The notes under the pieces: model-generated
The model's input: only the letters and a program-made list of their open reading frames with translations
Databases searched by the model: none
What the model was told of the DNA's origin: nothing
Assembly: GCA_963838915.1 (NCBI GenBank)
Contig: CAWIUZ010000300.1
Location: 3,283 to 67,282, forward strand
Direction: 5' to 3'
Source: an uncultured Acidobacteriota bacterium
GTDB lineage: Bacteria; Acidobacteriota; Terriglobia; UBA7540
DNA length: 64,000 nucleotides
Made by a program: the position numbers and the translations under genes
Shown here: positions 26,834 to 63,070 of the stretch, piece after piece
Layout: each line of letters opens with the position of its first letter
Numbering within the stretch: the first letter of the stretch is position 1

Positions 26834-26868
26834 CTGAATGCTGACGGCTGATAGCTGACGGCTTCTGC
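26834..26868. repeat. Heptamer tandem array (5 units, CTGANNG)
   Basis: 'ctgaatg ctgacgg ctgatag ctgacgg cttctgc', immediately before the SD and ATG of sdhC1. Confidence 0.75.
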
Positions 26869-26879
26869 AGGAGGCAGTA

Positions 26880-27317
26880 ATGGCCGCAATCCAACGGCAC
26901 GACAATCGGCTGGGAATCTGGGGATGGCTAGGGGGCGGGCGATGGGGCGTCGAGCGCTACGCTTACATCTTGCATCGCCTGACCGGCCTCGGTATTCTCT
27001 GCTACTTTTTGATGCACGTGGTGGTAACCAGCCTGCGCGCCACGGGCGTTTACTTGTGGGTCGAAGGCGGTCCGCTACACCAACCCCTTTTCAAGTTCGG
27101 GGAGTTTCTGGTTTTTGCGGCTTTTGCTTATCACGCTTTCAACGGCGTGCGTCTGGTGCTTGTTGAGCTCGGATTCGCGGTGGGTAAGCCCATCGAACCC
27201 GTGTATCCCTACAAGACGTCGCTGAACGTGCAGCGACCGCTGCTGATCGCTATGATGATTTTGGCGGCGCTGTTTCTTGCGGCGGGAGGTTATCAGTTCC
27301 TTGGATTGGCAAAGTAG
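26880..27317 (+). CDS. sdhC: Succinate dehydrogenase membrane anchor, cytochrome b subunit (operon 1)
   Basis: SD 'aggagg' lies 6 nt upstream. The 145-aa product has three TM helices. 'RYAYILHRLTGLGILCYFLMHV...AFAYHAFNGVRLVLVE' is clearly homologous to the SdhC of operon 2. Confidence 0.7.
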   Translation: MAAIQRHDNRLGIWGWLGGGRWGVERYAYILHRLTGLGILCYFLMHVVVTSLRATGVYLWVEGGPLHQPLFKFGEFLVFAAFAYHAFNGVRLVLVELGFAVGKPIEPVYPYKTSLNVQRPLLIAMMILAALFLAAGGYQFLGLAK

Positions 27318-27421
27318 CGCCGACCTTTAGAGCCTGCCCTGAGCGGAGCGAAGGGTCGGCACGTGCTGAGCTAAAGCTCAGCGCTACGAGATCAACCAGG
27401 GTGGTGGCGGCTTGAAAACGA

Positions 27422-27581
27422 CCCCTCACCCGTCCCGCGACGGCTGATGAATGCGCCGTCGCGCGACACCCTCTCCCCGCGGGAGAGGGCAGTAGTCGAA
27501 GATCACAGCCCTCTCCCCCTTGGGGGAGAGGGTGGACGGCAGCCGGCGGTTTCATCAGCCGGGGCGGGCCGGGTGAGGGGG
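27422..27581. repeat. REP-like family A: two inverted copies of a ~70-bp element
   Basis: The forward copy 27422-27490 is 'cccctcacccgtcccgcgacggctgatgaatgcgccgtcgcgcgacaccctctccccgcgggagaggg'. A reverse-complement copy sits at 27509-27581. Each contains the hairpin ccctctccc/gggagaggg. Confidence 0.85.
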
Positions 27582-27607
27582 TGGGCGGCGACTATTTTCG
27601 ACCAGAG

Positions 27608-27636
27608 CGAGATTCCTCGCTTCGCTCGGAATGACA
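27608..27636. repeat. REP-like family B unit (reverse orientation)
   Basis: 'cgagattcctcgcttcgctcggaatgaca'. Confidence 0.8.
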
Positions 27637-27661
27637 GCCGGCAATCGGCATAGGAGAGAAG

Positions 27662-28045
27662 ATGCGCGAAACGAAATACTGGACGTGGCACATGGCGGCG
27701 GGGGTGGTGATCCTCTTCCTGCTGGGCCTTCACATGCTGATCATGCATCTGGGCGGGACGACGCACTTGTTTGCTCCGCACGCAGGCGAAGCGGTCTCGA
27801 AGGCCAACAGCCTGTTTCGCGATGGCAGGCTATTTTTCACCGTCACTTACATTCTTCTGCTCGGAGTCGCTCTCTATCACGGCCTTTACGGCCTGCGGAC
27901 GATTCTGTTCGAGTTGACGCTGAAGCCTGCGGTGGAAAAACTTACGACTGTGGTCCTCGTGGTGGTGGGGTTGGGACTATTCGGATTGGGCACGTGGGCG
28001 GCCGTCGTTGCGCATGCCATCGCTCAAGCGGGAGGCAGGGGGTAG
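27662..28045 (+). CDS. sdhD: Succinate dehydrogenase hydrophobic membrane anchor subunit (operon 1)
   Basis: SD 'aggagag' lies upstream. The 127-aa TM protein reads 'WHMAAGVVILFLLGLHMLIMHL...LLLGVALYHGLYGLRTILFE' and is homologous to the SdhD of operon 2. Confidence 0.65.
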   Translation: MRETKYWTWHMAAGVVILFLLGLHMLIMHLGGTTHLFAPHAGEAVSKANSLFRDGRLFFTVTYILLLGVALYHGLYGLRTILFELTLKPAVEKLTTVVLVVVGLGLFGLGTWAAVVAHAIAQAGGRG

Positions 28046-28047
28046 CT

Positions 28048-28881
28048 ATGCCGGAAACCAGCAAAGCCGTACGCGAGATTAACTTTCACATCACGCGCTA
28101 CAATCCTGAAAGCGACCCCGCGCCTTACGTGAAGACTTACACCATCCCTGTGCGCGAGGGCATGACGGTGCTGGACGGGTTGCACTACATCAAAGAGAAC
28201 CTGGACGCGACGCTGGCCTGGCGCTACTCTTGCCGCATGGGCGTGTGCGGCTCGTGCGGCATGCTGCTGAACGGCAAACCGACCCTGGCCTGCAACACGC
28301 AAATCCTGCACATCGCCACGACCGATCTCACCGTTGGCCCGCTGCCGAATTTCGACATCGTGCGCGACCTGGTCCCCGATCTGACGACGATGTTGGACAA
28401 GCACCGCGCGTTGAAGCCTTACGTGACGCGCGCGGACGAGGACGAGATCAACGATCCGGCAGGCGAGTTTTATCAGTCACCGGAGGAACTCGAAGCCTAC
28501 CTGCAATTCACCTACTGCATAAAATGCGGCTGCTGCATGGCCGCCTGCCCCACTCTCGCCACCGACGCGCGCTACTTGGGACCGATGCCCTTGGCGGCGG
28601 CGGAGCGTTACAACCGTGACACGCGCGACGACGGGCGGCGCGAGCGCAACCAACTCACAGGCGGTGCGGGCGGCGCGTTCCGCTGCCACTACGCCGGCGA
28701 GTGTTCCCGTGCCTGCCCCAAGGGCGTGGACCCGGCGAGAGCCATCCAACTTCTCAAGCGGCAACTCGTTCTGGATTATCTCCACTTGGCTCGCCGCAAG
28801 AAACCATGCCAGAAATTGCACGGTCCGGGTGAAAGCAAGCCGCTTCCCAGCATCCCCGCCGCGCCGGCCAGGACGGTTTGA
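28048..28881 (+). CDS. sdhB: Succinate dehydrogenase/fumarate reductase iron-sulfur subunit (operon 1)
   Basis: ATG at 28048 lies 2 nt after the sdhD1 stop. Cluster motifs are 'CRMGVCGSCGMLLNGKPTLAC' (2Fe-2S), 'CIKCGCCMAACP' and 'CHYAGECSRACPKG'. The longer ORF from 27631 overlaps sdhD1 and is rejected. Confidence 0.9.
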   Translation: MPETSKAVREINFHITRYNPESDPAPYVKTYTIPVREGMTVLDGLHYIKENLDATLAWRYSCRMGVCGSCGMLLNGKPTLACNTQILHIATTDLTVGPLPNFDIVRDLVPDLTTMLDKHRALKPYVTRADEDEINDPAGEFYQSPEELEAYLQFTYCIKCGCCMAACPTLATDARYLGPMPLAAAERYNRDTRDDGRRERNQLTGGAGGAFRCHYAGECSRACPKGVDPARAIQLLKRQLVLDYLHLARRKKPCQKLHGPGESKPLPSIPAAPARTV

Positions 28882-29680: not shown

Positions 29681-29749
29681 CCCCTCACCCGGCCCGCGAC
29701 GGCTGGTGAAAGCGCCGTCGCGGTCCACCCTCTCCCCTCGGGAGAGGGC
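29681..29749. repeat. REP-like family A copy
   Basis: 'cccctcacccggcccgcgacggctggtgaaagcgccgtcgcggtccaccctctcccctcgggagaggg'. Confidence 0.85.
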
Positions 29750-29762
29750 TGCTTCTTTTCTA

Positions 29763-29790
29763 CTGACTCCTGACTTCTGACTCCTATCAG
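29763..29790. repeat. Heptamer tandem array (4 units, CTGACTY)
   Basis: 'ctgactc ctgactt ctgactc ctatcag'. Confidence 0.75.
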
Positions 29791-29820: not shown

Positions 29821-30234
29821 TTGAGTTTTAGGGCTGATCCAACAGCGAAGCGGACAGACATGGTCAAATTTCGAGAATACCTTACCTATCGGGGAGGACC
29901 GGGGCACTGGTCCTGGATTCTGCACCGCGTGACCGGCGTGGGCGTGTTTCTATTCTTGCTGGTCCACATCGTAGACATCGCATTAGTGGGTTGGGGTCCG
30001 GCGATTTTCAACAAGCTGCTTTTCCTTTACCGTTATCCGCCCTTTCGGGTGGGTGAGATCGCCTTGGTGGGAGCGGTGCTCTATCATGCCCTGAACGGGG
30101 TGCGGATTTGCGTCGTTGATTTCTGGCCGGAAGCCACGGTGGTCCACCGCAAGCTTGTTTACGCGGTGGGGATCGTATTTGCCGTGGTCTTCATTCCCAC
30201 GGCGATCTACATGGCAAGCACCATAATGAAGTAG
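29821..30234 (+). CDS. sdhC: Succinate dehydrogenase cytochrome b subunit (operon 2)
   Basis: 137-aa ORF (TTG start; the alternative ATG at 29860 gives 'MVKFREY'). It reads 'HWSWILHRVTGVGVFLFLLVHIVD...AVLYHALNGVRICVVD'. Confidence 0.75.
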   Translation: MSFRADPTAKRTDMVKFREYLTYRGGPGHWSWILHRVTGVGVFLFLLVHIVDIALVGWGPAIFNKLLFLYRYPPFRVGEIALVGAVLYHALNGVRICVVDFWPEATVVHRKLVYAVGIVFAVVFIPTAIYMASTIMK

Positions 30235-30296
30235 GGGCACATTGGGATGCACCCCCTGCGCCCCCACGAAGAACGCAGAGGAGAAAGAAGAAGCCG

Positions 30297-30665
30297 ATGA
30301 ACGGAGCGAGCACACCAAGACCGGAAAGCGGGCTGGAACTTTACGCCTGGATGTTCATGCGGGTGTCGGGCGTGGTATTGCTCTTTCTGGCATTGGGGCA
30401 TCTGCTGATTATGCACCTTATCCACAACGTCGATAATATCGACTTTCAGTTTGTGGCGCGCCGCTACGCCACGCCGTTCTGGAGGACGTACGACCTGGTG
30501 ATGCTCTGGCTGGCTCTCATTCACGGGCTGAACGGCATTCGAACCCTGGTGGGAGACTACGTGCGAGCAAAGGGCTGGCAGGTTGCCACCCTGGCCTCGC
30601 TTTATGTTTTTGGGTTTGTTCTTTTGACTCTCGGGTCGCTGACGATTTTAACGTTTCGACCGTAA
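30297..30665 (+). CDS. sdhD: Succinate dehydrogenase hydrophobic membrane anchor subunit (operon 2)
   Basis: 122-aa TM protein 'LELYAWMFMRVSGVVLLFLALGHLLIMHL...LALIHGLNGIRTLVGDY'. Confidence 0.7.
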   Translation: MNGASTPRPESGLELYAWMFMRVSGVVLLFLALGHLLIMHLIHNVDNIDFQFVARRYATPFWRTYDLVMLWLALIHGLNGIRTLVGDYVRAKGWQVATLASLYVFGFVLLTLGSLTILTFRP

Positions 30666-30670
30666 GGAAG

Positions 30671-30733
30671 TTGAGAGTCGAGAGTCAAGAGTACTCCGGA
30701 CTCTCAACTCTCAACTCTCGACTCTGGACTGCT
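30671..30733. repeat. Inverted pair of heptamer arrays (GAGAGTC family) forming a hairpin
   Basis: Left arm 'ttgagag tcgagag tcaagag'. Right arm 'gactctc aactctc aactctc gactctg gactgct'. The pair fills the sdhD2-sdhA2 spacer and ends 1 nt before the sdhA2 ATG. Confidence 0.8.
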
Positions 30734-30734
30734 T

Positions 30735-32459
30735 ATGGCACAACGCTACGATGCGGTGATTGTGGGAGCTGGGGGCGCGGGCCTTATGGCGGCGCTGCAA
30801 CTCGCCGGGCACGGCCAGGTGGCGGTGTTGAGCAAGCTTTACCCCACGCGCTCGCACACGGGGACGGCCCAGGGTGGAATTGGGGCGGCGCTCGGCAACC
30901 TCGAAGAGGACCATTGGGAATGGCACATGTTCGACACGGTGAAGGGCGGCGACTACCTTGTCGACCAGGACGCGGCGGAAATATTGTGCCGCGAGGCAAT
31001 CGAGACCGTGTACGACCTCGAGCACTGGGGTTTGCCCTTTAGCCGTACTCCTGAGGGCAAGATCGCGCAACGGCCCTTCGGCGGGCACACTAGGGATTAC
31101 GGCAAGGCAGCCGTGCGCAGGTCGTGTTACGCGGCGGACCGCACCGGGCACATGATTTTGCAAACCTGCTACCAGCAGTGCATCAAGAACCAGGTGCATT
31201 TCTACGATGAGTATCACGTGCTGGACTTGCTGGTCGAACAGGAACGATGCGCCGGAGTTGTGGCGATGTGCCTGGCCACTGGAGAGATTCACACCTTCCA
31301 TGCCAAGGCCGTGCTTTTCGCAACCGGCGGATGCGGGAAAATGTTCCGCGTCACCTCGAACGCCCATTCGCTGACCGGCGACGGCATGGCGGTGGCCTAC
31401 CGGCGCGGGATTCCGCTCGAGGACATGGAATTCTTCCAGTTCCACCCGACTGGAATCTACAAGATGGGAATTCTGCTGAGCGAAGCGGCGCGTGGAGAAG
31501 GCGCCATTTTGCGTAACAAGACAGGTGAGCGCTTCATGGAGCGCTACGCTCCCACGCTCAAGGACCTTGCCCCGCGTGACATGACGTCGCGCGCCATCTA
31601 CCAGGAAATCCGCGAAGGGCGCGGCATCGATGGAAAGAACTACGTTCACCTCGATCTGACCCATCTCGGCAAAGATGTGCTGGATAAGAAGCTTCCGGAT
31701 ATTACCGAATTCGTGCGTACCTACTTGGGTATTGAACCGCTCAAGGACCTAGTGCCCATTCAGCCGACTGCACACTACGCCATGGGCGGAATACCCACGG
31801 ATGTAGAGGGGCGGGTGGTCATCGATGAGAAAAGCACGCCGCTGCCCGGCTTCTACGCGGCAGGCGAAGTGGCCTGCGTTTCCGTCCACGGCGCCAACCG
31901 CTTGGGGACGAATTCCCTGGTCGACATTCTGGTGTTCGGGCGGCGCGGCGGGCGGCACGCGGCGAAGTTCATCAAGGAGAATGACTGGGCGCCATTGCCT
32001 GCCAAGGCCGACGAGCCCGCGCGGGCGCTCGCGAGCGAACTGAAGAATTCTCGCGGCACGGAGCGCCCGGCCGATATCCGTGACGCGCTCCAGGACGAGA
32101 TGATGGATAAAGCCTCGGTCTTCCGCGATGCCAAGGGCTTGACGGCGATGCGCGAACGGCTGCGCGAGCTTCGCGCCCGCTACCGGCAAGCCAAGGTCGA
32201 GGACCAGAGCGCTTGCTACAACACCGAATTGCTGGAAGTGATCGAGTTGGGCGGCCTGTTGGACCTTGCTGAGGTCCTGGTGGAAAGCGCTTTGGTCCGC
32301 CAGGAGAGCCGCGGAGCGCACTTCCGCGAGGACTTTCCAAAGCGCGATGATCCGAACTGGCTGAAACATACCCTGGCGTATAAGGGCGAAAAGGGGATCG
32401 AGTTTCGGTATAAGCCGGTGACGATTACGAAGTTCGAACCGAAGGAGAGGAAGTACTGA
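30735..32459 (+). CDS. sdhA: Succinate dehydrogenase flavoprotein subunit (canonical, operon 2)
   Basis: 574 aa. Motifs are 'YDAVIVGAGGAGLMAALQ', 'RSHTGTAQGGIGAALGN', 'FHPTGIY', 'EAARGEGAILRN' and 'HGANRLGTNSL'. Confidence 0.95.
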   Translation: MAQRYDAVIVGAGGAGLMAALQLAGHGQVAVLSKLYPTRSHTGTAQGGIGAALGNLEEDHWEWHMFDTVKGGDYLVDQDAAEILCREAIETVYDLEHWGLPFSRTPEGKIAQRPFGGHTRDYGKAAVRRSCYAADRTGHMILQTCYQQCIKNQVHFYDEYHVLDLLVEQERCAGVVAMCLATGEIHTFHAKAVLFATGGCGKMFRVTSNAHSLTGDGMAVAYRRGIPLEDMEFFQFHPTGIYKMGILLSEAARGEGAILRNKTGERFMERYAPTLKDLAPRDMTSRAIYQEIREGRGIDGKNYVHLDLTHLGKDVLDKKLPDITEFVRTYLGIEPLKDLVPIQPTAHYAMGGIPTDVEGRVVIDEKSTPLPGFYAAGEVACVSVHGANRLGTNSLVDILVFGRRGGRHAAKFIKENDWAPLPAKADEPARALASELKNSRGTERPADIRDALQDEMMDKASVFRDAKGLTAMRERLRELRARYRQAKVEDQSACYNTELLEVIELGGLLDLAEVLVESALVRQESRGAHFREDFPKRDDPNWLKHTLAYKGEKGIEFRYKPVTITKFEPKERKY

Positions 32460-32464
32460 AGAAA

Positions 32465-32535
32465 TTGAGAGTCAAGAGTCGAAAGTCGACAGTCGGCGGG
32501 GTGAAGGTTAAAGGCTGAAGTGTAAAGGCCAAAGG
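32465..32535. repeat. Two consecutive heptamer arrays (5 units TCNAGAG-like, then 5 units NNNAAGG)
   Basis: 'ttgagag tcaagag tcgaaag tcgacag tcggcgg' then 'gtgaagg ttaaagg ctgaagt gtaaagg ccaaagg', directly after the sdhA2 stop. Confidence 0.75.
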
Positions 32536-32580
32536 GTGCGCGCACAGCGATGAATGCGAAAGCCCGCCTTTGAATACACA

Positions 32581-32650
32581 GCCCTCTCCTCAGGGGAGAG
32601 GGTGTCCTGCTGCCGGCGCTTTCATCCGCCGGAGCGGGACGGGTGAGGGG
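32581..32650. repeat. REP-like family A copy (reverse orientation)
   Basis: 'gccctctcctcaggggagagggtgtcctgctgccggcgctttcatccgccggagcgggacgggtgaggggg'. It accounts for the spurious N-terminal extension of ORF 32570. Confidence 0.85.
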
Positions 32651-32674
32651 GCGGCCCAATCAGGGGAGTTACTG

Positions 32675-33373
32675 ATGCAAGTTGTTTTGAAAATCAAGCG
32701 GTTCAATCCTGAGTCGGACAAAGAACCGTGGTGGGGTGAATATAAGGTGGAAGCCGAGGCTACTGACCGGCTTCTGGACGCCCTGAACCATGTCAAATGG
32801 TACCTTGACGGATCGCTCACCTACCGCCGCTCTTGCGCGCACGGCATCTGCGGCTCGGACGCCATGGTCATCAACGGATCGAATCGTCTGGCTTGCAAGG
32901 AGCTGCTGAGGAATCTGGGCGAGCATATCACGGTCGAACCGATGCGCGGCTTTCGTGTGATCAAAGACCTATTGGTAGACATGGACGCGTTCCTGGCCAA
33001 GTACCGGAGTGTGAAACCCTACTTCATCACCCACTCACCGGAACCTGAGAAGGAAAGATTGCAATCGCCGCAGGACCGGGAAAAGTTCGATGACACCACA
33101 AAGTGCATCCTCTGTGGCGCCTGCACCACGAGTTGCCCTTCGTTCTGGGCGAACCAGGATTACGTTGGCCCGGCGGCGATCGTCAATGCCCACCGCTTCA
33201 TCTTCGACAGCCGCGACGAAGGCGCGGCGGAGCGTATGGAAATCCTGGATTCCGTAGACGGAGTCTGGCGCTGCCGCACCGTCTTCAACTGTCTGGAGGC
33301 TTGCCCCCGCGGCATCAACGTGACGCGCGCCATCGGCGAAGTGAAGAAGGCGTTGTTGTATCGCAAACTATAA
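32675..33373 (+). CDS. sdhB: Succinate dehydrogenase iron-sulfur subunit (operon 2)
   Basis: Starts at 'MQVVLKIKRFNPESD'. Cluster motifs are 'CAHGICGSDAMVINGSNRLAC', 'CILCGACTTSCP' and 'CRTVFNCLEACPRG'. Confidence 0.93.
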   Translation: MQVVLKIKRFNPESDKEPWWGEYKVEAEATDRLLDALNHVKWYLDGSLTYRRSCAHGICGSDAMVINGSNRLACKELLRNLGEHITVEPMRGFRVIKDLLVDMDAFLAKYRSVKPYFITHSPEPEKERLQSPQDREKFDDTTKCILCGACTTSCPSFWANQDYVGPAAIVNAHRFIFDSRDEGAAERMEILDSVDGVWRCRTVFNCLEACPRGINVTRAIGEVKKALLYRKL

Positions 33374-33379
33374 GGCGGA

Positions 33380-33531
33380 GGAAACTGGAAATTGGAAAAT
33401 AGAAAATAGAAACTGGAAAATAACTACTGGGAAGTAGGCCCCAGTTTCCATTTTCCAGTTTCCACTTTCCATTTTCCAGTTTCTATTTTCCAGTTTCCCG
33501 TTTCTGATTTCTAATTTCTGCTTTCTGATTT
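33380..33531. repeat. Large inverted pair of heptamer arrays (6 units RGAAANT, 13 units CNNNTTT)
   Basis: 33380-33421 reads 'ggaaact ggaaatt ggaaaat agaaaat agaaact ggaaaat'. 33441-33531 reads 'ccagttt ccatttt ccagttt ccacttt ... ctgattt'. The arms are partly complementary and the array ends 3 nt before ATG 33535. Confidence 0.85.
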
Positions 33532-33534
33532 CCC

Positions 33535-34785
33535 ATGACCCGCCGTACGATGCTCACCACTGCTGGACAGTCTTTAGTTCTATGCGCCGCGCCGCTTGTG
33601 CCGGGGCCGACCGCCGGGAGTTCTCCGCAAACCGGCGAACAGAAACCCTACGACCTGCTGATCAAGGGCGGAAAGGTAATCGATCCTTCGCAAGGCCTGG
33701 AGGCGGAACTTGACGTCGCGGTGCGCGGCGGGAAGATAGCAAGAGTGGCGCCGGATATTCCCGAGGGGCAGGCAGGGCAAGTCATCCGCGCCCAGGGGAA
33801 GATCGTAACGCCGGGGATCATCGACATCCATACTCACGTTTTCCCCTACGTCGGCCCGTACGGCATCGAGCCGGACCCCTACTGCGTGCGAAGGGGCGTC
33901 ACATCCGTCATCGATGCAGGAACTTCCGGCGCCTTCACCTTTCCCGCCTTTCGGCGCTTTATCATTGAGCGCTCGGCGACTCGGATTCGCGCTCTCCTGC
34001 ACGTGGTCTCGATCGGCATGGTAGCGGGCGGCACGCCCAACATGGGAGAACTCGAAGACCTGCGCTATTGCGTCCCGAAACTTGCCGTCGAAACGGCGAA
34101 TCAGAATCGGGAGTCAATCGTGGGATTCAAGATTCGCTTCTCGGAGCACTATACCGGACCCAATGATCTCGAAGGCATGAGGCGCGCTCGCGCGGCCGCG
34201 GACGAAGCCGGCTTGCCCATCATGATCCACATTGGTGGATCGTACACGCCCCTCAAGGAGTTCCTCGCGCTCATGAAAAAGGGCGATGTGGTGACCCACT
34301 CTTTCAATAGTCACCCCCATGGTTTGCTGGACGCCGGCGGCAAGCTCACACCGGAAGTGGTCGAGGCCCGTGAGCGGGGAGTTCTGTTTGACGTGGGACA
34401 CGGCGCGGGGAGCTTCTCTTTCGAGGTTATGGAGAAATGCTTGGGACAGGGCTTTTCACCGGACACCATTTCCAGCGATTTGTACTCCGCGAACATCAAC
34501 GGGCCCGTTTACGACCAGTTAACAACCCTTTCCAAGTTTCTGGTCTTGGGAATGAGCCTGCACGACGTCATTGCGCGCACTACCGTAAATTCTGCACGGG
34601 TCTTCAACTTCGGCGCCGAAATCGGAACTCTCAAACCAGGCGCCGAGGCGGATGTCAGCGTGCTGGAGTTGAAAGACGGAGAGTTCACCTTCACCGACTC
34701 TGACGGCAAGACCCGCACGGGACGCCAGAAACTTGAAGCTGTCACGACCGTGAAGGGTGGAAAGGTTTTCGAGCCCACTGGATGA
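33535..34785 (+). CDS. Amidohydrolase/deacetylase-family metallohydrolase with Tat-like signal
   Basis: 416 aa. It reads 'MTRRTMLTTAGQSLVLCAA', 'DLLIKGGKVIDPSQG...GKIVTPGIIDIHTHVF' (HxH metal motif) and '..GLPIMIHIGG'. Confidence 0.85.
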   Translation: MTRRTMLTTAGQSLVLCAAPLVPGPTAGSSPQTGEQKPYDLLIKGGKVIDPSQGLEAELDVAVRGGKIARVAPDIPEGQAGQVIRAQGKIVTPGIIDIHTHVFPYVGPYGIEPDPYCVRRGVTSVIDAGTSGAFTFPAFRRFIIERSATRIRALLHVVSIGMVAGGTPNMGELEDLRYCVPKLAVETANQNRESIVGFKIRFSEHYTGPNDLEGMRRARAAADEAGLPIMIHIGGSYTPLKEFLALMKKGDVVTHSFNSHPHGLLDAGGKLTPEVVEARERGVLFDVGHGAGSFSFEVMEKCLGQGFSPDTISSDLYSANINGPVYDQLTTLSKFLVLGMSLHDVIARTTVNSARVFNFGAEIGTLKPGAEADVSVLELKDGEFTFTDSDGKTRTGRQKLEAVTTVKGGKVFEPTG

Positions 34786-43915: not shown

Positions 43916-43921
43916 GCACGG

Positions 43922-43950
43922 GAGTCAGAAGTCAGGATTCAGGATTCAGG
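43922..43950. repeat. Heptamer tandem array (4 units, NNNTCAG)
   Basis: 'gagtcag aagtcag gattcag gattcag', starting 7 nt after the hom stop. Confidence 0.75.
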
Positions 43951-44075
43951 AGAAGAGCTTTTCAATAGCAGAGCGACTGTGTCGGCGTAAGAGCGAGCCA
44001 ACCGCAAGCAGTGAGCAACGGGGAATAGTGAATGCTCTCTGTTTGCTGTTTGCGACTTTCTGCTCTGAAATGCGC

Positions 44076-47783: not shown

Positions 47784-47850
47784 CCCTCTCCATAGGGGAG
47801 AGGGTGGCCCGCGGCGGCGCTTTCCCGAGGCGCGTGGGTCGGGTGAGGGG
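47784..47850. repeat. REP-like family A copy (reverse orientation)
   Basis: 'gccctctccataggggagagggtggcccgcggcggcgctttcccgaggcgcgtgggtcgggtgagggg'. Confidence 0.85.
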
Positions 47851-47962
47851 TTTCTTCAACTTCGTACTTAGCGGACGATCGAGCCTTTCGGTTAGTTCTG
47901 CCGAGGAGCACAGGGAATGAAGTCGCGGACGGAAATTGATGATGCCGAACCCCGGCAAGTGA

Positions 47963-48030
47963 CCCCTCACCCGTCACGCTCCGGCTGGTGAAGTCGCCGT
48001 AGCGTGACACCCTCTCCCCAAGGGAGAGGG
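47963..48030. repeat. REP-like family A copy
   Basis: 'cccctcacccgtcacgctccggctggtgaagtcgccgtagcgtgacaccctctccccaagggagaggg'. Confidence 0.85.
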
Positions 48031-48072
48031 TTTTGTTTCCAACATCCGACCCGTGTCCACCCGAGCATTCCC

Positions 48073-48978: not shown

Positions 48979-49000
48979 AGAAGATTACCTCGTCGGAAAT

Positions 49001-49049
49001 AGGATTCAGGATTCAGGGCTCCCGCGCGCCAATACCTGAATCCTGATTG
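49001..49049. repeat. Inverted heptamer arrays (AGGATTC / CTGAATC) forming a hairpin
   Basis: 'aggattc aggattc agggctc ... ctgaatc ctgattg', upstream of the 48978 start. Confidence 0.75.
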
Positions 49050-49137
49050 CCGTCTTGTTGACAACTTCTGAGACTACAGCATAGTATCCAATTTTGAGCA
49101 AAAATGCTCGGGATTAGCCGATGATTCGAGGATGTCC

Positions 49138-49172
49138 TGACTCCTGACTCCTGAATCCCGAATCCTGCTTTT
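49138..49172. repeat. Heptamer tandem array (5 units, TGAMTCC) ending at the larC start codon
   Basis: 'tgactcc tgactcc tgaatcc cgaatcc tgctttt', followed directly by ATG 49173. Confidence 0.8.
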
Positions 49173-52939: not shown

Positions 52940-53038
52940 TTGAGTCATTGAGCCATTGGGTCATTGACTCCTTCAATTAGCTGGTTTTTCAATGGCCCAA
53001 CGACTCAATGACCCGATGACCCAATGAATCAATTGCTG
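52939..53038. repeat. Inverted pair of octamer arrays (ATTGAGYC / complement)
   Basis: 52939-52970 reads 'attgagtc attgagcc attgggtc attgactc'. 52991-53038 reads 'aatggccc aacgactc aatgaccc gatgaccc aatgaatc aattgctg'. The pair spans the metG stop to the tatD start (ATG 53024 lies inside the array). Confidence 0.8.
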
Positions 53039-53818: not shown

Positions 53819-53977
53819 CTATCGAGGAAGGGTTCACGCAAAGGCGCCAAGGACGCAAAGCTCGCAAAGAAATGAAGTGCTTCCCCTGCGCGTTTTCTTG
53901 CCAGTGGCGTCTTTGCGGAGCTGTTTGGATTTGTGAGTTAAGCAGCGCTATAGGAAACTTGCGGTGACGGTGCTCGT

Positions 53978-54005
53978 CACTCGTCACTTGTCACTCGTCA
54001 CTATG
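53978..54005. repeat. Heptamer tandem array (4 units, CACTYGT) running into a start codon
   Basis: 'cactcgt cacttgt cactcgt cactatg'. The last unit contains ATG 54003. Confidence 0.75.
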
Positions 54006-54284
54006 TATTTCAACTGCTGGAAGTGCCGCCAGAAAATCGAATATCCTTCCGGAAGCCGCGTGGGCACGCGCGACATCTGCCCCCAGTGTGGCTCCGACTT
54101 GCATGCCTGCTGCAATTGCCAATTCTACGATCCCGGCAAACACAATCAGTGCGCCGAAACCCAGGCCGAATGGGTCCGCGATAAAGAGGCCGCGAACTAC
54201 TGCAATTACTTTCGCCCCAATCCCACCCTGCTGGCCAGCGCCGATACAGGGGAAGCCATGCAAGGAAATTGCAGTGGCTCTTGA
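54003..54284 (+). CDS. Small Cys-rich (zinc-ribbon-like) protein
   Basis: 'MYFNCWKCRQKIEYPSGSRVGTRDICPQCGSDLHACCNCQFYDPGKHNQCAE' has CxxC pairs. No family can be named. Confidence 0.5.
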   Translation: MYFNCWKCRQKIEYPSGSRVGTRDICPQCGSDLHACCNCQFYDPGKHNQCAETQAEWVRDKEAANYCNYFRPNPTLLASADTGEAMQGNCSGS

Positions 54285-54320
54285 ATTCTCTGATAGACTC
54301 ACCCGGAATTGTGGAATCAA

Positions 54321-54348
54321 AATTCCAGATTCAAGATTCCAGATTCAA
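54321..54348. repeat. Heptamer tandem array (4 units, GATTCMA)
   Basis: 'aattcca gattcaa gattcca gattcaa'. It is the reverse complement of the array at 54887. Confidence 0.8.
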
Positions 54349-54358
54349 GAGGGCTAGC

Positions 54359-54875
54359 GTGGGATACGAACGGTTTGAGGAACTTCCAGTCTGGCAGGCC
54401 AGCGTCGAACTGGCTCTCGCGACCTACGCCATGACCGCACAGCCGGCCTTCCGGCGGCAGCACAGTCTGCGCGACCAACTCGAGCGTGCCGCGGTCTCTG
54501 TTTCTAACAACATCGCGGAAGGCTTTGAAAGGGGCACGAATCAGGAACTGTTGACTTTCTTGTACATTTCGCGTGGTTCTGCAGGTGAAGTGCGCTCGAT
54601 GCTCTGCCTGCTTGAGCGTATGCCCGGCTTTCGTGATCTGGAATCCGGAATCTTGAATCTGAAATCCAGTGTCGAAAGGGCAACTCGGCGCGTGGATTCG
54701 CTCGTTGCGCGATTCAGAGCTTAAAGGCCAGCGCTACGTCTCGGAAAAGACGCGCCGGGCGGACAAGGCTCGCCTGGAGCGCGAGGAGTTTCTGAAGAAA
54801 CTCGAGCAGATAAGAAAGGGAGGCGGCACGGTCACTGGCAGCGCAGATCCAGCCTCTGGGACTCAAAAAGTGTGA
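54359..54875 (+). pseudogene. Four-helix-bundle protein (23S rRNA IVS-type) with C-terminal extension, out of frame by one heptamer
   Basis: GTG at 54359. 'YERFEELPVWQASVELALATY...LRDQLERAAVSVSNNIAEGFERGTNQELLTFLYISRGSAGEVRSML' is the four-helix-bundle family pattern. The C-terminal 'VSKGQLGAWIRSLRDSELKGQRYVSEKTRRADKARLEREEFLKKLEQ' is in the next frame, starting at 54669. Confidence 0.75.
54638..54665. repeat. Heptamer array (4 units, CNNGAAT) inside the four-helix-bundle ORF at the frameshift point
   Basis: 'ctggaat ccggaat cttgaat ctgaaat'. Confidence 0.8.
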
Positions 54876-54886
54876 AATAAGGCGGT

Positions 54887-54914
54887 TCTTGAATCTTGAA
54901 TCCGGACTCTGGAA
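54887..54914. repeat. Heptamer tandem array (4 units, TCTTGAA-like)
   Basis: 'tcttgaa tcttgaa tccggac tctggaa'. Confidence 0.8.
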
Positions 54915-56407: not shown

Positions 56408-56556
56408 TGTCATTCCGAGCGCAGCGAGGAATCCCGCTCTGCTCTCGCCACGTGAATTTCTCCGGCAGAGCGAGATTCCTCGCGGAGTTTACCCTGAGCA
56501 CCCAGAGCGAGATCCTTCGCTTCGCTCAGGATGACAGCGAAGGGCTCGGAATGACA
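56408..56556. repeat. Cluster of REP-like family B units in the gatC-gatA spacer
   Basis: 'tgtcattccgagcgcagcgaggaatcc' (56408-56434), 'cgagattcctcgc' (56471-56483), 'cgagatccttcgcttcgctcaggatgaca' (56508-56536) and 'ctcggaatgaca' (56545-56556). Confidence 0.8.
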
Positions 56557-57551: not shown

Positions 57552-58136
57552 ATGCGTCTCATTCTTGCCTCAGCTTCGCCGCGCCGCCGCGACCTATTGC
57601 GCAATGCCGGCATCGATTTCGAGGTCCGGCCTGGCCAGGTGGTTGAGGAAATCCAACCGGGCGAATTACCTGAGGAGTTTGCTCGCCGCGTCGCACGCGA
57701 GAAAGCCATGCAAATCGTAGCCTCAGTGCCTCCTGGTCTCCTCGTCTTGGGAGCGGATACGGTCGTAGTCATTGACGGGCAGACGCTAGGAAAGCCGTCG
57801 GACCCTCAGGATGCCGCGCGTATGCTTCGCCTGTTGTCGGGTCGAACCCACCAGGTGCATACCGGCATTTGCCTCGTGCGCGCGCCCGGTGGAATTGAGG
57901 CGCTCAAACACGAGACAACCCTGGTTACATTCCGCGAACTCGATGAGGAAGAGATTCGCCAGTACGTCGAGAGCGGTGAGCCCTGGGACAAGGCGGGAGG
58001 CTACGCGATTCAAGGGCTCGCATCCAAATTCGTCATTCGGATCTCGGGCTGCTACTCGAACGTGGTGGGCTTGCCGGTGGCTCTGCTTTACGAGGTTCTG
58101 AAGCCGCTCATGAAGGCGGAAGGCAGTAGGCAGTAG
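57552..58136 (+). CDS. maf: Maf-family nucleoside triphosphate pyrophosphatase
   Basis: 'MRLILASASPRRRDLLRNAGIDFEV', 'VLGADTVV' and 'GKPSDPQDA..ML..LSGRTHQVHTG'. The stop lies within the GGCAGTN array. Confidence 0.9.
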   Translation: MRLILASASPRRRDLLRNAGIDFEVRPGQVVEEIQPGELPEEFARRVAREKAMQIVASVPPGLLVLGADTVVVIDGQTLGKPSDPQDAARMLRLLSGRTHQVHTGICLVRAPGGIEALKHETTLVTFRELDEEEIRQYVESGEPWDKAGGYAIQGLASKFVIRISGCYSNVVGLPVALLYEVLKPLMKAEGSRQ

Positions 58137-58170
58137 GCAGTTGGCAGTTGGCAGTTGGCAGTTGGCAGAT
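58122..58170. repeat. Heptamer tandem array (7 units, GGCAGTN)
   Basis: 'ggcagta ggcagta ggcagtt ggcagtt ggcagtt ggcagtt ggcagat'. Confidence 0.85.
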
Positions 58171-58289
58171 GGGCTGAGGAGAGTTGCCGGAACACCTTTG
58201 GGGTGGGGCGAATGTCTGAAAAACCAGAGCGAGATTCCTCGCTCCGCCCTGGACCGTCCGGCCCAGGACTCCCCTCTCTCGGAAATCAC

Positions 58290-58361: not shown

Positions 58362-58459
58362 ACGCATGTGATTTTCATTCCTCAGGGTGAGCGCAGGCCC
58401 CTGACCGCTCGGAACGACGGGTACCAATCGGCAATCGACCATCGGAAATCGGCAATGAA

Positions 58460-60376: not shown

Positions 60377-60585
60377 CTGGTCCTTGATTATGCGAGAAAG
60401 GCCGAGGGGAAGCAATCGCTTCCATGATTCCGTAGTGTCCTAATTTGACTCGTAGCGCTGGCCTTTAGGACAGCGCTACGCTGAAATTAGGACACCACCC
60501 TTGATTCCCAATAGTGGCCAGAATTCATCCCGCATGTTACGCTAAAGCGAACGGGCAGCACGCACATATTATCGGAGGTGAGAAC

Positions 60586-61665
60586 TTGAAACTCACACTA
60601 ACCACTCTTCTGGTATTCATCTGTCTGGCCGCATCGGCACACGCGGACGTGGCGACCCTCAAGAACGGAGACCGGGTTACAGGAACACTAGTCACGATCA
60701 AAGGAGGAACTTTGCAACTTAAGACCGCCAACCTCGGGATCGTATCGATCCCCATGGCCCAGGTGGCGACTTACTCCTCAGATAAACCCGTAGCGGTTGT
60801 TATTAAAGGCCAGGAACCCGTCGAAGGCATGCTGGAACTCCTGCCTTCCGGCGACTGGCAGATTAAAGGCGAGAACGGCCAGACTCAGACTATCGCCGCC
60901 GCCAAACCCGAAGTCATCATGCCGGCCGACGATTACCAGAAAACCGAACAGGCCCCTGGGATCTTGCAAGCGTGGAAAGGCGGCGCCAGCCTGGGGTACA
61001 GCCTCCAGAACGGCAACCAGGAATCGAACACTCTGACCACAAGCGTTGCCGCGTCCCGTGAACGTCCGGCGACGCCCATTTTTGAACGGCATATGCGCAC
61101 AACCTTCGACTTTACTACGCTTTTCTCGCATGCCGAGCAGAAGAGCATCACAGCGCCATTCGTCGTCACCAGCACGGTGTCCTCGCGCACCCTCACCGCA
61201 GACCTGCGGCAGGACTACCTTTTCAGTCCGGACAACTTTGTGTTTGTATTCGGTCAAGTCAACCACATCTCAACCCAAGGCCTCTATCTGCAACAGACCT
61301 ACGGCGGCGGCTTCGGGCGCGACGTTTTCAAAAACGCGCGAACGACGTTCAGCGTCCTCGGCGGCCCGACCTACGTTCAAGAGAAGTTCTTTAATGGGCA
61401 GCTCACCCAGACCATCGAACTGCTGCTGGCAGAGACACTCGGCGTGCAATTCTCCAAGCGGCTTCGGCTCGACCATTACTTTCAAGTTTACCCGGACCTG
61501 ATTCACGGCGGACAATACCGTTTTGATACCAGCGCAGTCTTGTCCTACAAGCTGCTCAACAAGTTTACGGTGAATGCCAGCCTGATCGATCTTTACCTAA
61601 GCAATCCGCCCACCGGGGAGAAGAACAACGTCACGCTTTCTGTCGGCATTGGATACGCGTTCTAA
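60586..61665 (+). CDS. DUF481-family outer-membrane beta-barrel protein
   Basis: TTG at 60586 lies 6 nt after GGAGGTG. It has a signal peptide 'LKLTLTTLLVFICLAASAHA' and 'LKNGDRVTGTLVTIKGGTLQL', and ends with a terminal aromatic residue '...GIGYAF*'. The longer ORF from 60514 is possible. Confidence 0.75.
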   Translation: MKLTLTTLLVFICLAASAHADVATLKNGDRVTGTLVTIKGGTLQLKTANLGIVSIPMAQVATYSSDKPVAVVIKGQEPVEGMLELLPSGDWQIKGENGQTQTIAAAKPEVIMPADDYQKTEQAPGILQAWKGGASLGYSLQNGNQESNTLTTSVAASRERPATPIFERHMRTTFDFTTLFSHAEQKSITAPFVVTSTVSSRTLTADLRQDYLFSPDNFVFVFGQVNHISTQGLYLQQTYGGGFGRDVFKNARTTFSVLGGPTYVQEKFFNGQLTQTIELLLAETLGVQFSKRLRLDHYFQVYPDLIHGGQYRFDTSAVLSYKLLNKFTVNASLIDLYLSNPPTGEKNNVTLSVGIGYAF

Positions 61666-61761
61666 GACGGAAACAGGCGCGGGGCAACCGCTATAATCTG
61701 GTCGAGAGGCAGCGCTCAGTCTACTCTCGATGATGTTCTGGGGAGAGGGGACGGCAAGCCG

Positions 61762-62835
61762 TCACTCATCCGTCGGCTTGCCCGGCGGGGGAGGTGCCTG
61801 CTTCTCAGATTCGGACCCCAGCCAGACGCTCACCACCTCCCAAATCCCCAGCCGCTTTTGCAGAACCAAGTCATACTTCGCGACGGCGGAGGGGTCTTCG
61901 AGCGATACACCAGCCAGCGCTCTTTGCTGGTCCGGCGAGAAAGTGAGGTTTTGAATCTCCACCTTGACTTCCGGTTTCGCAGGGGTGCGGTGAGCGGCGG
62001 TATCCGCCGGCGATGGAGGGGGTGGCAGAAGCGCCGGAATGAAATATGTGCGGACAGCGGCATCGACGGAGCCGCCTGCTTTCTTGCCATCGGGAGTGGC
62101 CAAATATTTGGAACGAATCTGAATGACGTCCCGGGCGTTTTCCAGGTCGTCGTGGATGACCACATCGTTCACCCTTTTTTCTGCCTGCCGAATCAAGTCC
62201 GCCAGCTTCGGCCCAGTGCGGACTGTCAGGGCCATGATTGCAGCCTCTGTCACCGTGCGGTCTGGTTCAGCATCCGACTTGTCGATAACTCGGAAAAGCG
62301 CTTGCGTGGCCTGATCGGTATCGTACTCACCCAGGGCGCCATAACAGAAGCGCCGCAGGTTAAGATCGCGCTTGTCATCCTGAAGCTTCCAGAGAATCTG
62401 CATCGCCTGGTCGCCACCGATGAAGGCCAGGGATTGTGCCGCAAACTCGGCCGTACGGTCGTCCTTGAGCGCTTGGGCCAATTGCGGAATGATGCTCGAG
62501 CCCGCCGCGAATGCGGCGCGGAAGAGTGAGTCTGCCGCCTCCGCGTTCGGCGCGCTCAGAATCCCGTCCAATAGCTCCGGCGCCCAGTCGCCGGGGAGTG
62601 GCTCTTCAGACTGCTCGCCGGTCGCATTGTCAGAAGGTTGCGATGCAGGAATCTTCTGTGCCGGTGCAGGCGGCGATGACTGTTGCGCCACGCCTCGGGC
62701 GGAAACGAAAGAGCAACAGGCCATGAGCAACAGGCTCTGCCACACACGCCAAGCCAGCGCTCGGTGCCCCCGTCTAACCGCGATGCGTCTCGTTGTGTAC
62801 ATTCTGAATTCTGACCTTAGTTGGATGCCCGGCAA
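61762..62835 (-). CDS. Hypothetical secreted protein with HEAT/ARM-like helical repeats
   Basis: 357-aa intact ORF with a hydrophobic N-terminal segment. Helical repeats such as 'IIPQLAQALKDDRTAEFAAQSLAFIGGDQAM' are present. The start may be Met12. No family can be named. Confidence 0.55.
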   Translation of the reverse strand: MPGIQLRSEFRMYTTRRIAVRRGHRALAWRVWQSLLLMACCSFVSARGVAQQSSPPAPAQKIPASQPSDNATGEQSEEPLPGDWAPELLDGILSAPNAEAADSLFRAAFAAGSSIIPQLAQALKDDRTAEFAAQSLAFIGGDQAMQILWKLQDDKRDLNLRRFCYGALGEYDTDQATQALFRVIDKSDAEPDRTVTEAAIMALTVRTGPKLADLIRQAEKRVNDVVIHDDLENARDVIQIRSKYLATPDGKKAGGSVDAAVRTYFIPALLPPPPSPADTAAHRTPAKPEVKVEIQNLTFSPDQQRALAGVSLEDPSAVAKYDLVLQKRLGIWEVVSVWLGSESEKQAPPPPGKPTDE

Positions 62836-62867
62836 GCTGGAAGAGTTGGGGAACCCGGCAAAGAGTA

Positions 62868-62909
62868 GGCAGTGGGCAGTCGGCAGTAGGCAGTCGGCAG
62901 TCGGCAGCG
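62868..62909. repeat. Heptamer tandem array (6 units, GGCAGTN)
   Basis: 'ggcagtg ggcagtc ggcagta ggcagtc ggcagtc ggcagcg'. Confidence 0.85.
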
Positions 62910-63007
62910 AGCCACAGAATGACCTGATCAGTGCGCGTTACGGGGCGCACAGAACCGGCTGGCGTGAGCCGCGTATACACGCTGTTGGATTTCCCCCCGT
63001 TCGTCGG

Positions 63008-63070
63008 CTGCCTTCTGCTTTCTGCCTACTGCCTTCTGCCTACTGCCTACTGCTTACTGCCTACTGGTCT
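63008..63070. repeat. Heptamer tandem array (9 units, CTGCYTN), reverse complement of the GGCAGTN family
   Basis: 'ctgcctt ctgcttt ctgccta ctgcctt ctgccta ctgccta ctgctta ctgccta ctggtct'. It overlaps the stop of the HAD gene. Confidence 0.85.

Follow-up and report, generated by a model that had tools for sequence, protein, structure and literature searches.

Short tandem arrays of 7-nt units recur along a 64,000-nt stretch of DNA from an uncultured Acidobacteriota bacterium (Terriglobia; UBA7540; contig CAWIUZ010000300.1, positions 3,283 to 67,282), the whole of which is referred to here as the window. The arrays belong to the heptanucleotide repeats described as long simple sequence repeats (LSSR) or short tandemly repeated repetitive sequences (STRR; PMC4692102, PMC4679880, PMC2700814), a known class that is newly seen in Acidobacteriota. 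On balance we lean towards the view that their paired form is the arm structure of cassettes resembling the intervening sequence (IVS) of 23S rRNA, which carry the gene of an Avd-like intervening sequence protein (IVP) and would act at the RNA level. That paired heptamer arrays form the arms of IVP cassettes across phyla is apparently unreported, as a connection between the IVP family and heptamer arrays did not turn up in full-text literature searches (subscription-only literature lying outside their scope), an observation in Coxiella apart.

Tandem Repeats Finder (TRF), applied to the window, returned period-7 arrays wherever a previous reading of the sequence alone had listed them (starts at 26832, 29763, 30669/30699, 32477, 33380/33441-33533, 43921, 44213, 49001, 49135, 52519, 53973, 54317, 54636, 54887, 58122 and 62864/63008), the exception being position 32501, merely a degenerate NNNNAAG x5 run recognised by eye. 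The single locus with 8-nt units was likewise recovered (period-8 arrays at 52930/52990), and two arrays that had been missed were added at 44039 (CTGTTTG) and 58425 (CAATCGG x4.6). The total is about 23 imperfect arrays with 7-nt units (8-nt at the one locus), for a chance expectation of about 1.5. An autocorrelation scan at ≥85% self-identity detected period 7 in 19 arrays and period 8 in one, with no array of periods 5, 6 or 9-12; at a looser threshold 25 arrays were counted, compared with a mean of 1.5 and a maximum of 5 in 30 Markov shuffles. At least eight unit families are present, most of them not capable of forming G-quadruplexes. No period-7 array was detected by TRF or by the autocorrelation scan before 26.8 kb of the window, in agreement with the earlier remark that the first 26 kb are free of them. 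The features that the text relies on are the following:

26832-26863, + strand: G-rich array GGCTGAM x4.6, 17 nt 5' of the Sdh_cyt start (26880), with the Shine-Dalgarno sequence (SD) AGGAGG in between.
29759-29786, + strand: single C-rich array CTGACTY x3.3-4, upstream of sdhC.
30666-30694, + strand: G-rich 5' arm GAGAGTC x3.4, beginning directly after the sdhD stop (30665).
30693-30731, + strand: C-rich 3' arm GACTCTC x4.6, 4 nt short of the sdhA ATG (30735), without SD.
32467-32537, + strand: GAGAGTC-type array x4, then degenerate NNNNAAG x5, just 3' of the sdhA stop; unit family shared with the arms 5' of sdhA; does not fold by itself.
33378-33421, + strand: purine-rich 5' arm GGAAAMT x6, 3' of the sdhB stop (33373).
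33440-33536, + strand: pyrimidine-rich 3' arm CCAKTTT / TTTCTGA x13, reaching into the amidohydrolase ATG (33535).
43921-43954, + strand: single G-rich array GGAKTCA x4.6, 6 nt past the homoserine dehydrogenase stop (43915).
44033-44053, + strand: weak array CTGTTTG x2-3.
44211-44239, + strand: CTGCTTT x3.6, abutting the 3' end of tRNA-Lys(UUU) (44239-44313, - strand).
48995-49047, + strand: G arm AGGATTC x2.4-3 with a short inverted copy CCTGAATCCTGA, between the AP_endonuc_2 start (- strand) and the larC promoter.
49132-49167, + strand: C-rich array CTGAMTC x4.7 in the larC leader, 6 nt before the ATG (49173), without SD, downstream of a TTGACA-N18-TAGTAT promoter.
52519-52615, + strand: AGCCCCC x13.6 inside metG, encoding a Pro/Ser/Gln-rich linker before the C-terminal tRNA_bind domain.
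52930-52967, + strand: 5' arm of 8-mers, ATTGAGTC x4.6, overlapping the metG stop (52937-52939).
52990-53027, + strand: 3' arm of 8-mers, CAATGACC x4.8, overlapping the tatD ATG (53024), without SD.
53968-54004, + strand: single C-rich array CTCGTCA x4.3, ending at the ATG (54003) of a conserved Cys-rich small ORF.
54317-54351, + strand: TCAAGAT/TCCAGAT x4.9, upstream arm of the IVP cassette.
54359-54724, + strand: IVP gene, encoding an Avd-like four-helix-bundle protein of subtype C (PF05635, E 3.5e-24; TIGR02436).
54636-54666, + strand: ATCTGGA/ATCTTGA x4.4, inverted partner of the array at 54317, located in the IVP ORF towards its 3' end, at the limit of the Pfam match (residue 88).
54886-54909, + strand: TCTTGAA x2.3-3.4, of the same unit family and orientation as the array at 54636, adjoining the gatA stop.
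58111-58174, + strand: single G-rich array GGCAGTN x7-9, providing the maf stop codon (TAG, 58134-58136), with a copy number that varies among relatives.
58424-58456, + strand: CAATCGG x4.6, adjoining the selB stop (58460, - strand) and kept in relatives.
62863-62912, + strand: G-rich arm GGCAGTN x6.3.
63005-63068, + strand: C-rich arm CTGCCTN x8.4, partner of 62863-62912 across a 100-nt loop.

One complete IVP cassette lies in the window (54317-54724), between tatD/Zn-ribbon and gatA. Its gene is a member of the '23S rRNA intervening sequence protein' family (PF05635; TIGR02436, E 2.8e-23) and is related to PDB entries 2GSC and 2RLD; the family is related to Avd, a protein of diversity-generating retroelements (DGRs; PMC10053308). 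The arms at 54317-54351 and 54636-54666 pair in the minimum-free-energy fold. An array at 54638 had been placed correctly inside an ORF by the sequence-only reading, which did not recognise that ORF as an array-flanked gene of the 23S-rRNA-IVS type.

The relatives used for comparison comprised 80 Terriglobia loci around metG (1.33 Mb; L-numbers are locus labels), the closest genomes being metagenome-assembled genomes of uncultured Terriglobia from peat. At the metG|tatD spacer, inserts in these relatives encode PF05635/TIGR02436 four-helix-bundle proteins. Full cassettes are found in L007, L092, L093 and L098, with AGGTGTC...GACACCT arms around an insert of ~400 nt, and in L089 and L096, with GTCCGTT...AACGGAC arms around another IVP insert. 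L100 and L075 hold remnants of 127-142 nt with residual IVP similarity, the one in L100 (127 nt) retaining its GTCCGTT...AACGGAC arms, and in the window, L087, L088 and L097 a bare 8-mer hairpin occupies the spacer. At this one orthologous position, cassettes decay to ORF-less hairpins.

A home-built IVP profile, made from the metG|tatD inserts and run on 2.06 Mb of Terriglobia sequence, found 41 IVP ORFs. A heptamer array lies directly upstream of 38 of these, and the remaining three are 3' fragments. The ORFs fall into three subtypes with one unit each (AGGTGTC...GACACCT, GTCCGTT...AACGGAC and CAGATTC...ATCTGGA), and the inverted arms that enclose the ORF pair in the other subtypes as well. 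Of 34 loops that measured at least 300 nt from arm to arm, 32 contained an IVP gene. Purifying selection on these genes is strong (dN/dS 0.05-0.07 at dS 0.5-1.7; ~0.06 for the window gene). Subtype A gives a weak DivGenRetAVD/bAvd match with scores below the cut-offs of the Avd family.

Loci outside Terriglobia were picked by protein similarity alone. A tblastn search of 72,556 plasmids with IVP subtype A gave 34 records, of which 30 were cyanobacterial, and cyanobacteria are the taxa known for heptamer repeats (as cited in PMC4692102). In all 19 distinct loci sampled from cyanobacteria, Gemmatimonadota, Xanthomonas and Azospirillum, arrays of 7-8 nt adjoin the IVP gene. Fifteen are inverted pairs with the G-rich arm first, two have an array on one side only, beside a transposase, and two have arrays on both sides in the same orientation. 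The G-first units are GGGAGTA in Nostoc, AGGTGAC in Anabaena, GGGTGTA in Calothrix, GGCAGNN in Stanieria and Lusitaniella, GGGAAAA in Geminocystis and Cyanobacterium and GGGAACA in Nostoc C052; further G-first loci are those of Picosynechococcus, Leptolyngbya, two other cyanobacteria, Gemmatirosa, Xanthomonas and Azospirillum. The cyanobacterial loci are on plasmids and chromosomes alike. The Xanthomonas gene, XCC0516 (PDB 2GSC, five chains), stands between accB and accC and has the published GGGAATC repeats as its arms, the C-rich one ending exactly at the accC ATG; neither the IVP gene nor the link is mentioned in the paper on those repeats (PMC4692102). In Azospirillum the cassette lies within the 23S rRNA gene, so that a genuine rRNA IVS has arms of heptamer arrays.

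In one cyanobacterial assembly a block of 480 nt (16 nt, GGCAAAA array, IVP, TTTTGCC array, 12 nt) is 100% identical in two unrelated contexts, and a third copy of the cassette has 8 units instead of 5. Hence arm, gene and arm are copied as a unit and the arms slip. These observations lend support to one of the roles that had been suggested from the sequence, namely footprints of a mobile process, for the paired arrays enclose Avd-like genes as the arms of cassettes, and an identical cassette occurs in different contexts. Overall, IVP genes are almost always embedded between heptamer arms, in five phyla. One copy of the duplicated cassette is adjoined by IS605 OrfB/TnpB-like genes (L179, 3792-5066 and 6089-6423). 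Intra-operonic cassettes were seen at cas6|cas4 and cmr2|cmr3 (cyanobacterial plasmids L170, L189 and L190) and at accB|accC (Xanthomonas, L183-L187). 23S_rRNA_IVP genes have been reported from cas loci before (PMC3936711), where they may reflect insertion into spacers and not a CRISPR function.

The placement of the arrays follows the borders of genes. Spacers account for about 20% of 26.8-64 kb and contain all arrays except the metG linker array and the array at the 3' end of the IVP gene; the arrays occupy spacers edge to edge. G- or purine-rich arrays start at or overlap stop codons (sdhD, sdhA, sdhB, hom, the TGA of metG, the TAG of maf), and those rich in C or pyrimidines run up to start codons (sdhA, amidohydrolase, larC, tatD and the Cys-rich small ORF at 54003). 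An SD, present in most other genes of the window, is missing from all five whose ATG adjoins a C-rich arm. Among 97 inverted pairs from all loci the G-rich arm comes first in 80 and the C-rich arm in 5, with 12 ties; orthologous pairs are counted repeatedly in these figures, and the rule spans about ten unit families and several phyla. Arrays abutting starts are C-rich in the sense of the gene by 51 to 6 and those abutting stops G-rich by 62 to 14. Together, the two polarities amount to one geometric rule, by which the strand running 5' to 3' from a gene into the spacer is G-rich for any orientation of the gene.

Within the spacers of at least 60 nt between 26.4 and 63.1 kb, arrays are present in about 14 of 27 by our own reading of the gene map; many of the array-free ones hold two other REP-like repeat families. 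Some arrays stand inside operons (sdhD|sdhA, sdhA|sdhB, metG|tatD). The arrays as such had thus been seen correctly, but the claim that they mark almost every operon boundary was overstated: with about half of the spacers occupied, some of them within operons, 'operon boundary' is too narrow and 'almost every' too strong. A sigma-70-like promoter (TTGACA-N18-TAGTAT, 49058-49087), kept in all relatives, lies between a G-arm/C-arm hairpin and the C-rich array of the larC leader; arrays flank it on both sides and are hence not confined to transcribed spacers. The 13.6-copy AGCCCCC array of metG encodes the linker that joins the MetRS core to the C-terminal tRNA_bind domain. Relatives all have such an array, the lengths of which differ, and MetG identity is for this reason ~60-70%, compared with ~90-98% for its neighbours (in L007).

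The long imperfect hairpins proposed from the sequence for arrays facing their reverse complement were borne out by predicted folds, the stems of the inverted pairs being far more stable than those of shuffled sequences (z -5.4 to -7.7). The values are -40.5 kcal/mol (z -5.65) for sdhD|sdhA, -39.7 kcal/mol (z -5.4) for the 8-mer hairpin of metG|tatD, -63.4 kcal/mol (z -6.6) for sdhB|amidohydrolase and -116.7 kcal/mol (z -7.7) for 62855-63075. Single arrays showed no folding (z ~0). Strong intergenic hairpins may suggest intrinsic terminators or insulators that mark transcript ends, a role that had been raised early on, and the inner GC hairpin at 33426-33445 (sdhB|amidohydrolase) with its T-rich arm is indeed terminator-like on both strands. 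It is, however, the sole array hairpin with the GC stem, short loop and T-run of the intrinsic terminator class. The other 3' arms usually enter the next start codon directly, without a T-run, including those within sdhCDAB and at accB|accC of Xanthomonas, single arrays do not fold, and a scan for intrinsic terminators gave no enrichment at arrays. We consider this explanation very improbable.

The arrays are not assembly artefacts. Window proteins are encoded identically on contigs of several peat metagenomes of the Joint Genome Institute (JGI), and contigs from eight JGI metagenome assemblies match window positions 18243-22679 and 24496-62939 at 99.95-100%, with zero indels in any array; only one contig, which terminates within the array at 32474, differs near an array, and does so in its last bases. 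That independent contigs agree in this way is the reason for rejecting an artefact. Outside the arrays, a 1-base indel at window position 48829 relative to contig Ga0311301_10001134, inside the AP_endonuc_2 gene (48073-48978), changes the call from 301 aa to 230 aa. Contigs from the metagenomes of other samples end ~250-350 nt past the tRNA-Lys region (44551-44670), in a spacer dense in REP-like elements.

Among the 80 Terriglobia loci, 237 arrays have period 7, compared with 34, 14, 31, 2 and 1 for periods 5, 6, 8, 9 and 10, and 88% of arrays have 3-5 units. A limited vocabulary of units is common to related genomes, and many unrelated unit families occur within one genome. CAG/CTG is not a common core of the units: it is found in 57% of arrays vs 25% for the null, but in 32% vs 25% at the level of families, the excess per array being driven by abundant families. 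Arrays occupy the corresponding spacers of syntenic relatives at dS 0.3-1.1, and the unit family is kept with differing copy numbers and variants at AP_endonuc_2|larC, the maf 3' end, the selB 3' end, HEAT|HAD and the IVP flanks. L088 and L008, contigs that are 99.94% identical, differ at the maf array. The arrays must be maintained, by selection or by some homogenising process, since neutral sequence would be scrambled at such divergence.

The arrays could be neutral products of slippage, which favours 7-nt units (Mrazek et al. 2007, as cited in PMC4679880 and PMC4692102); they would drift in tolerant non-coding DNA without a function, and the link to IVP genes would be coincidental. Copy numbers that differ between close relatives, imperfect units, arrays that fill spacers up to the coding borders, the one that has been absorbed into the MetG linker, and the lack of both fine-scale covariation and strand asymmetry (see below) all agree with this. 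Against it stand the persistence of unit family and position at dS ~1, where neutral sequence would be scrambled, complementary pairs with a polarity of 80 to 5, the near-complete association with IVP genes in five phyla, and the absence of arrays from the IS-bounded 1-18.2 kb despite its spacers, and we regard the explanation as rather unlikely.

The same variation in copy number among relatives, together with heptamers near starts and promoters, could point to slipped-strand contingency loci that switch their neighbours, as do the 7-bp repeats upstream of the Haemophilus hmw genes. The units are, however, imperfect and few (3-5), they stand beside housekeeping genes (sdh, metG, tatD, maf), and assemblies of the strain from different samples all show the same arrays. 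No copy-number polymorphism of arrays was seen within the strain, in consensus assemblies, in which assemblers collapse such variation. On these grounds the arrays were not assigned to the phase-variable class, and the contingency role, also among the first suggestions, is scarcely credible.

Multivalent sites for a host protein unrelated to IVP, a single-strand binder of the cold-shock or S1 type or a global regulator, acting on the translation or transcription of neighbours, would account for the periodicity, the narrow range of copy numbers, the C-rich arrays that abut starts without an SD and the unit vocabulary common across genomes. Such a role has been proposed for TAACTGA in Beggiatoaceae (PMC4679880) and for MTYCTGA in Geobacter (PMC2700814), and CspB binds heptamers with one protein per unit (as cited in PMC4679880). 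Yet a single sequence-specific binder would hardly suit the many unrelated unit families per genome, one spacer can exchange its unit family completely, and the inverted pairs around IVP genes are left unexplained. We judge this reading to be improbable.

According to the IVP cassette reading, which we favour, spacer arrays would be polar palindromes, with a G- or purine-rich arm at the stop codon and a complementary C- or pyrimidine-rich arm ending at the next start, and the arms would pair into stems of ~20-60 bp. Arm, loop and arm would form an IVS-like cassette with an Avd-like four-helix-bundle IVP as cargo, the same element as the intervening sequence of 23S rRNA; the other pairs of the window would be ORF-less versions, and single arrays half-sites or remnants. 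Units would be gained and lost by replication slippage, place and unit family being long maintained. The arrays would be co-transcribed with the flanking genes, so that paired arms may give long double-stranded RNA. By analogy with the stems of the 23S IVS, these arms may be cut by RNase III, or the transcript may otherwise be segmented or stabilised, and processing would leave the downstream cistron with a C-rich leader that lacks an SD. The IVP, as a relative of the RNA-stem-binding Avd, may bind its own periodic arms. A role as sites for a periodic nucleic-acid binder, also among the first suggestions, gains support in that this protein is a concrete candidate for the binder. Published work on the IVS and on Avd is the basis from which the level of action, processing by RNase III and binding by IVP are inferred.

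Several observations weigh against this reading. An IVP gene is touched by only 2-3 of the ~23 arrays of the window, and the GGAKTCA, GGCAGTN, GAGAGTC, GGAAAMT and 8-mer families are without an IVP gene in any sampled Terriglobia locus; the IVP share is, moreover, biased upward, because all Terriglobia loci were centred on metG/tatD. In a test for a core resembling that of miniature inverted-repeat transposable elements, the loops of ORF-less pairs of the same family in one genome shared no sequence, and such pairs are hence not copies of one common-core element. Extra arrays of the cassette's own unit outside cassettes were found for subtype A only (8-fold, p = 0.015, in loci carrying the subtype), the units of subtypes B and C being virtually confined to their own cassette (one outside array for C). 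One G-arm/C-arm pair (48995-49047) sits upstream of the larC promoter. Compared as a test for RNA-level selection through G-U pairs, sense and antisense stems of 37 IVP cassettes were equally stable (sense better in 13, worse in 23, p = 0.43), and fine-scale covariation of the arms was absent, the own 3' arm pairing no better than the arm of another genome. That both arms switch together holds only for whole unit families, and may reflect replacement of the cassette. With strands equally stable and no covariation, RNA is not singled out over DNA as the level of action.

The arrays share with the LSSR/STRR class head-to-tail 7-nt units in excess of chance and of other periods, a mostly intergenic position, and families that recur with lengths varying between relatives. 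Heptanucleotide arrays are known from Nostoc and other cyanobacteria, Xanthomonas, Geobacter and Beggiatoaceae (PMC4692102, PMC4679880, PMC2700814). In Xanthomonas, the GGGAATC repeats (Rehm et al. 2015, PMC4692102) are likewise intergenic, imperfect heptamers of ~4 units that keep their position between species and change in length; 70 of 186 arrays in Xcc are paired, most are transcribed, and 83% are kept in place between species. Unlike the window with its eight or more families, that genome has one dominant unit family, which was studied as a G-quadruplex former. For cyanobacterial STRR (Calothrix, Nostoc), PMC4692102 and bioRxiv 10.1101/2022.06.06.494920 describe several intergenic families of tandem heptamers near start codons, and CCCCAGT-type, GGCAGNN and GGGAAAA arms are common to cyanobacteria and Terriglobia; the phylum is different, with a lower G+C, and inverted GGGGAYT pairs are reported as rare in Nostoc 7120. 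In Geobacter metallireducens, 4-5 tandem units form mostly inverted pairs, an octamer class exists too, and MTYCTGA is of the same unit family as CTGAMTC here, whereas the annotation is as putative sites of a global regulator, with no associated gene reported (PMC2700814). The TAACTGA arrays of Beggiatoaceae also lie a few nt upstream of starts, with a proposed role in translation, but are direct repeats only (one inverted case) of a single unit in 2-6 copies (PMC4679880).

The likeness to the 23S rRNA IVS with an S23p/IVP ORF (Coxiella, PMC4990558; Leptospira) lies in a PF05635 ORF within terminal inverted repeats that form a long stem. The S23p ORF of the Coxiella IVS follows a variable number of GACAGAT heptamers, the first of which is the site of RNase III cleavage (PMC4990558). 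The window cassette at 54317-54724 has the PF05635/TIGR02436 ORF and the enclosing inverted repeats that pair into a stem, but lies in an mRNA spacer and not in helix 25 or 45 of 23S rRNA, there being no rRNA in the window, where tRNA-Lys is the sole Rfam match at gathering thresholds; excision by RNase III has been demonstrated only for rRNA cases. Avd of DGRs is homologous to the IVP family and is a pentameric four-helix-bundle barrel that binds RNA stem-loops (bioRxiv 10.1101/2023.10.23.563531). A DGR as such was rejected, as the Pfam hits listed for the called genes of 24.5-62.9 kb and those of the separately scanned ORFs include no reverse-transcriptase family; template and variable repeats were not searched for.

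Strict-sense STRR, as Mazel is said to have described them in 1990, belong to heterocystous cyanobacteria and have the units CCCCAGT, TTGGTCA and CAACAGT. For a Terriglobia organism with only CCCCAGT-like units in common, that assignment was rejected. Repetitive extragenic palindromes (REP) are single imperfect palindromes of 20-40 nt with a GTAG/CGTC head, and their associated tyrosine transposase (RAYT) is a Y1 transposase. REP and bacterial interspersed mosaic elements (BIME) with RAYT resemble the present arrays as abundant intergenic palindromes, often paired, found in operons, with proposed roles in mRNA stability and a dedicated protein gene flanked by its own repeats. The heptamer arms, however, are tandem 7-mers, separate REP-like families exist in the window, no RAYT was found among the Pfam hits, and IVP has no known catalytic motif. 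CRISPR repeats measure 23-50 nt and are separated by unique spacers of similar length, whereas the array units are contiguous 7-mers. On REP, CRISPR and coding constraint, none of which explains the arrays, the sequence-only reading was right, as it was about the hairpins; it left the described class unrecognised.

As a speculative and rather doubtful extension, all heptanucleotide arrays (STRR, GGGAATC, those of Geobacter and Beggiatoaceae and of the window) might be the arms, acting in cis, of selfish or domesticated IVP/S23p cassettes that form one widespread class not recognised so far, with the 23S IVS as the best-known insertions and ORF-less pairs and singles as non-autonomous or decayed forms. 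A pentameric IVP might then bind about five units per array, and the fixed polarity, with the G-strand running inward, might stem from the mechanism that produces or copies the arms, in which a reverse transcriptase could take part, as it does with Avd in DGRs.

For the PF05635 'S23p / 23S-rRNA-IVS / four-helix-bundle' family, with its thousands of members and two crystal structures, no role is known outside DGRs. Tandem heptamers, for their part, were described decades ago in cyanobacteria and found over-represented among bacterial simple repeats in 2007 (as cited in PMC4692102), with no agreed origin or function. The order of G-rich arm, IVP gene and C-rich arm is consistent in Acidobacteriota, Cyanobacteriota, Gemmatimonadota, Gamma- and Alphaproteobacteria, and the two puzzles would be joined in a hypothesis that can be tested in tractable hosts (Xanthomonas accB-XCC0516-accC, Nostoc 7120). 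Annotation is affected as well, for arms replace SDs, supply stop codons, enter ORFs (MetG linker, IVP C-terminus) and break metagenome assemblies.

Within the array-free part of the window, positions 1-18.2 kb differ from other assemblies of the same strain, and a glycoside hydrolase family 57 (GH57) gene is truncated at 18158-19198 beside transposase fragments, its full-length form (763 aa) being present in L167. An HTH_21 transposase fragment lies at 16626-17639, and a transposase-like DruA + DDE_Tnp_1_assoc gene at 23441-24508 coincides with the breaks of metagenome contigs at ~22.7 and ~24.5 kb. Window 1-24580 is a variable segment bounded by insertion sequences (IS); the part at 1-18.2 kb has spacers, yet is also without the two other intergenic repeat families of the window. 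Because L167, an alternative arrangement in the same strain, carries a GGAGTCA...CTGACTC pair, the absence of arrays from the first 26 kb is real and accompanies the IS-bounded segment. For a 702-aa TPR protein encoded in the array-free segment (9784-11892), no record was found elsewhere.

Further observations concern the neighbouring genes and repeats. The Cys-rich, zinc-ribbon-like ORF of 93 aa 3' of tatD (54003-54284), the ATG of which directly follows the CTCGTCA array, has no Pfam or NCBIfam match and is kept at 80-94% identity in all close relatives. Two clusters resembling succinate dehydrogenase / fumarate reductase stand in tandem (24712-28881 and 29860-33373), separated by a Uma2-family gene (PF05685, 29024-29584); Uma2 is also found beside heptamer arrays in cyanobacterial L182. 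A REP-like element (CCCCTCACCCG ... CACCCTCTCCCC-N4-GGGAGAGGG) has 7 spacer copies, none of them in the first 26 kb, and its GC hairpin with a T-rich tail is what the terminator scan picks up. A second family of intergenic repeats (GTCATYCYGAGCG... / GAGCGAGATTCCTCGC) is present in ~10 copies, frequently paired in inverted orientation, and also occurs in the loops of heptamer-arm pairs of relatives. The positions of the two families are:

27415-27590, 29681-29760, 32578-32650, 44743-44815, 47790-47855 and 47962-48040: copies of the REP-like element.
19125, 27605-27635, 39577, 44077-44156, 44545, 44856, 56409-56523, 58227 and 63823: copies of the second intergenic repeat family.

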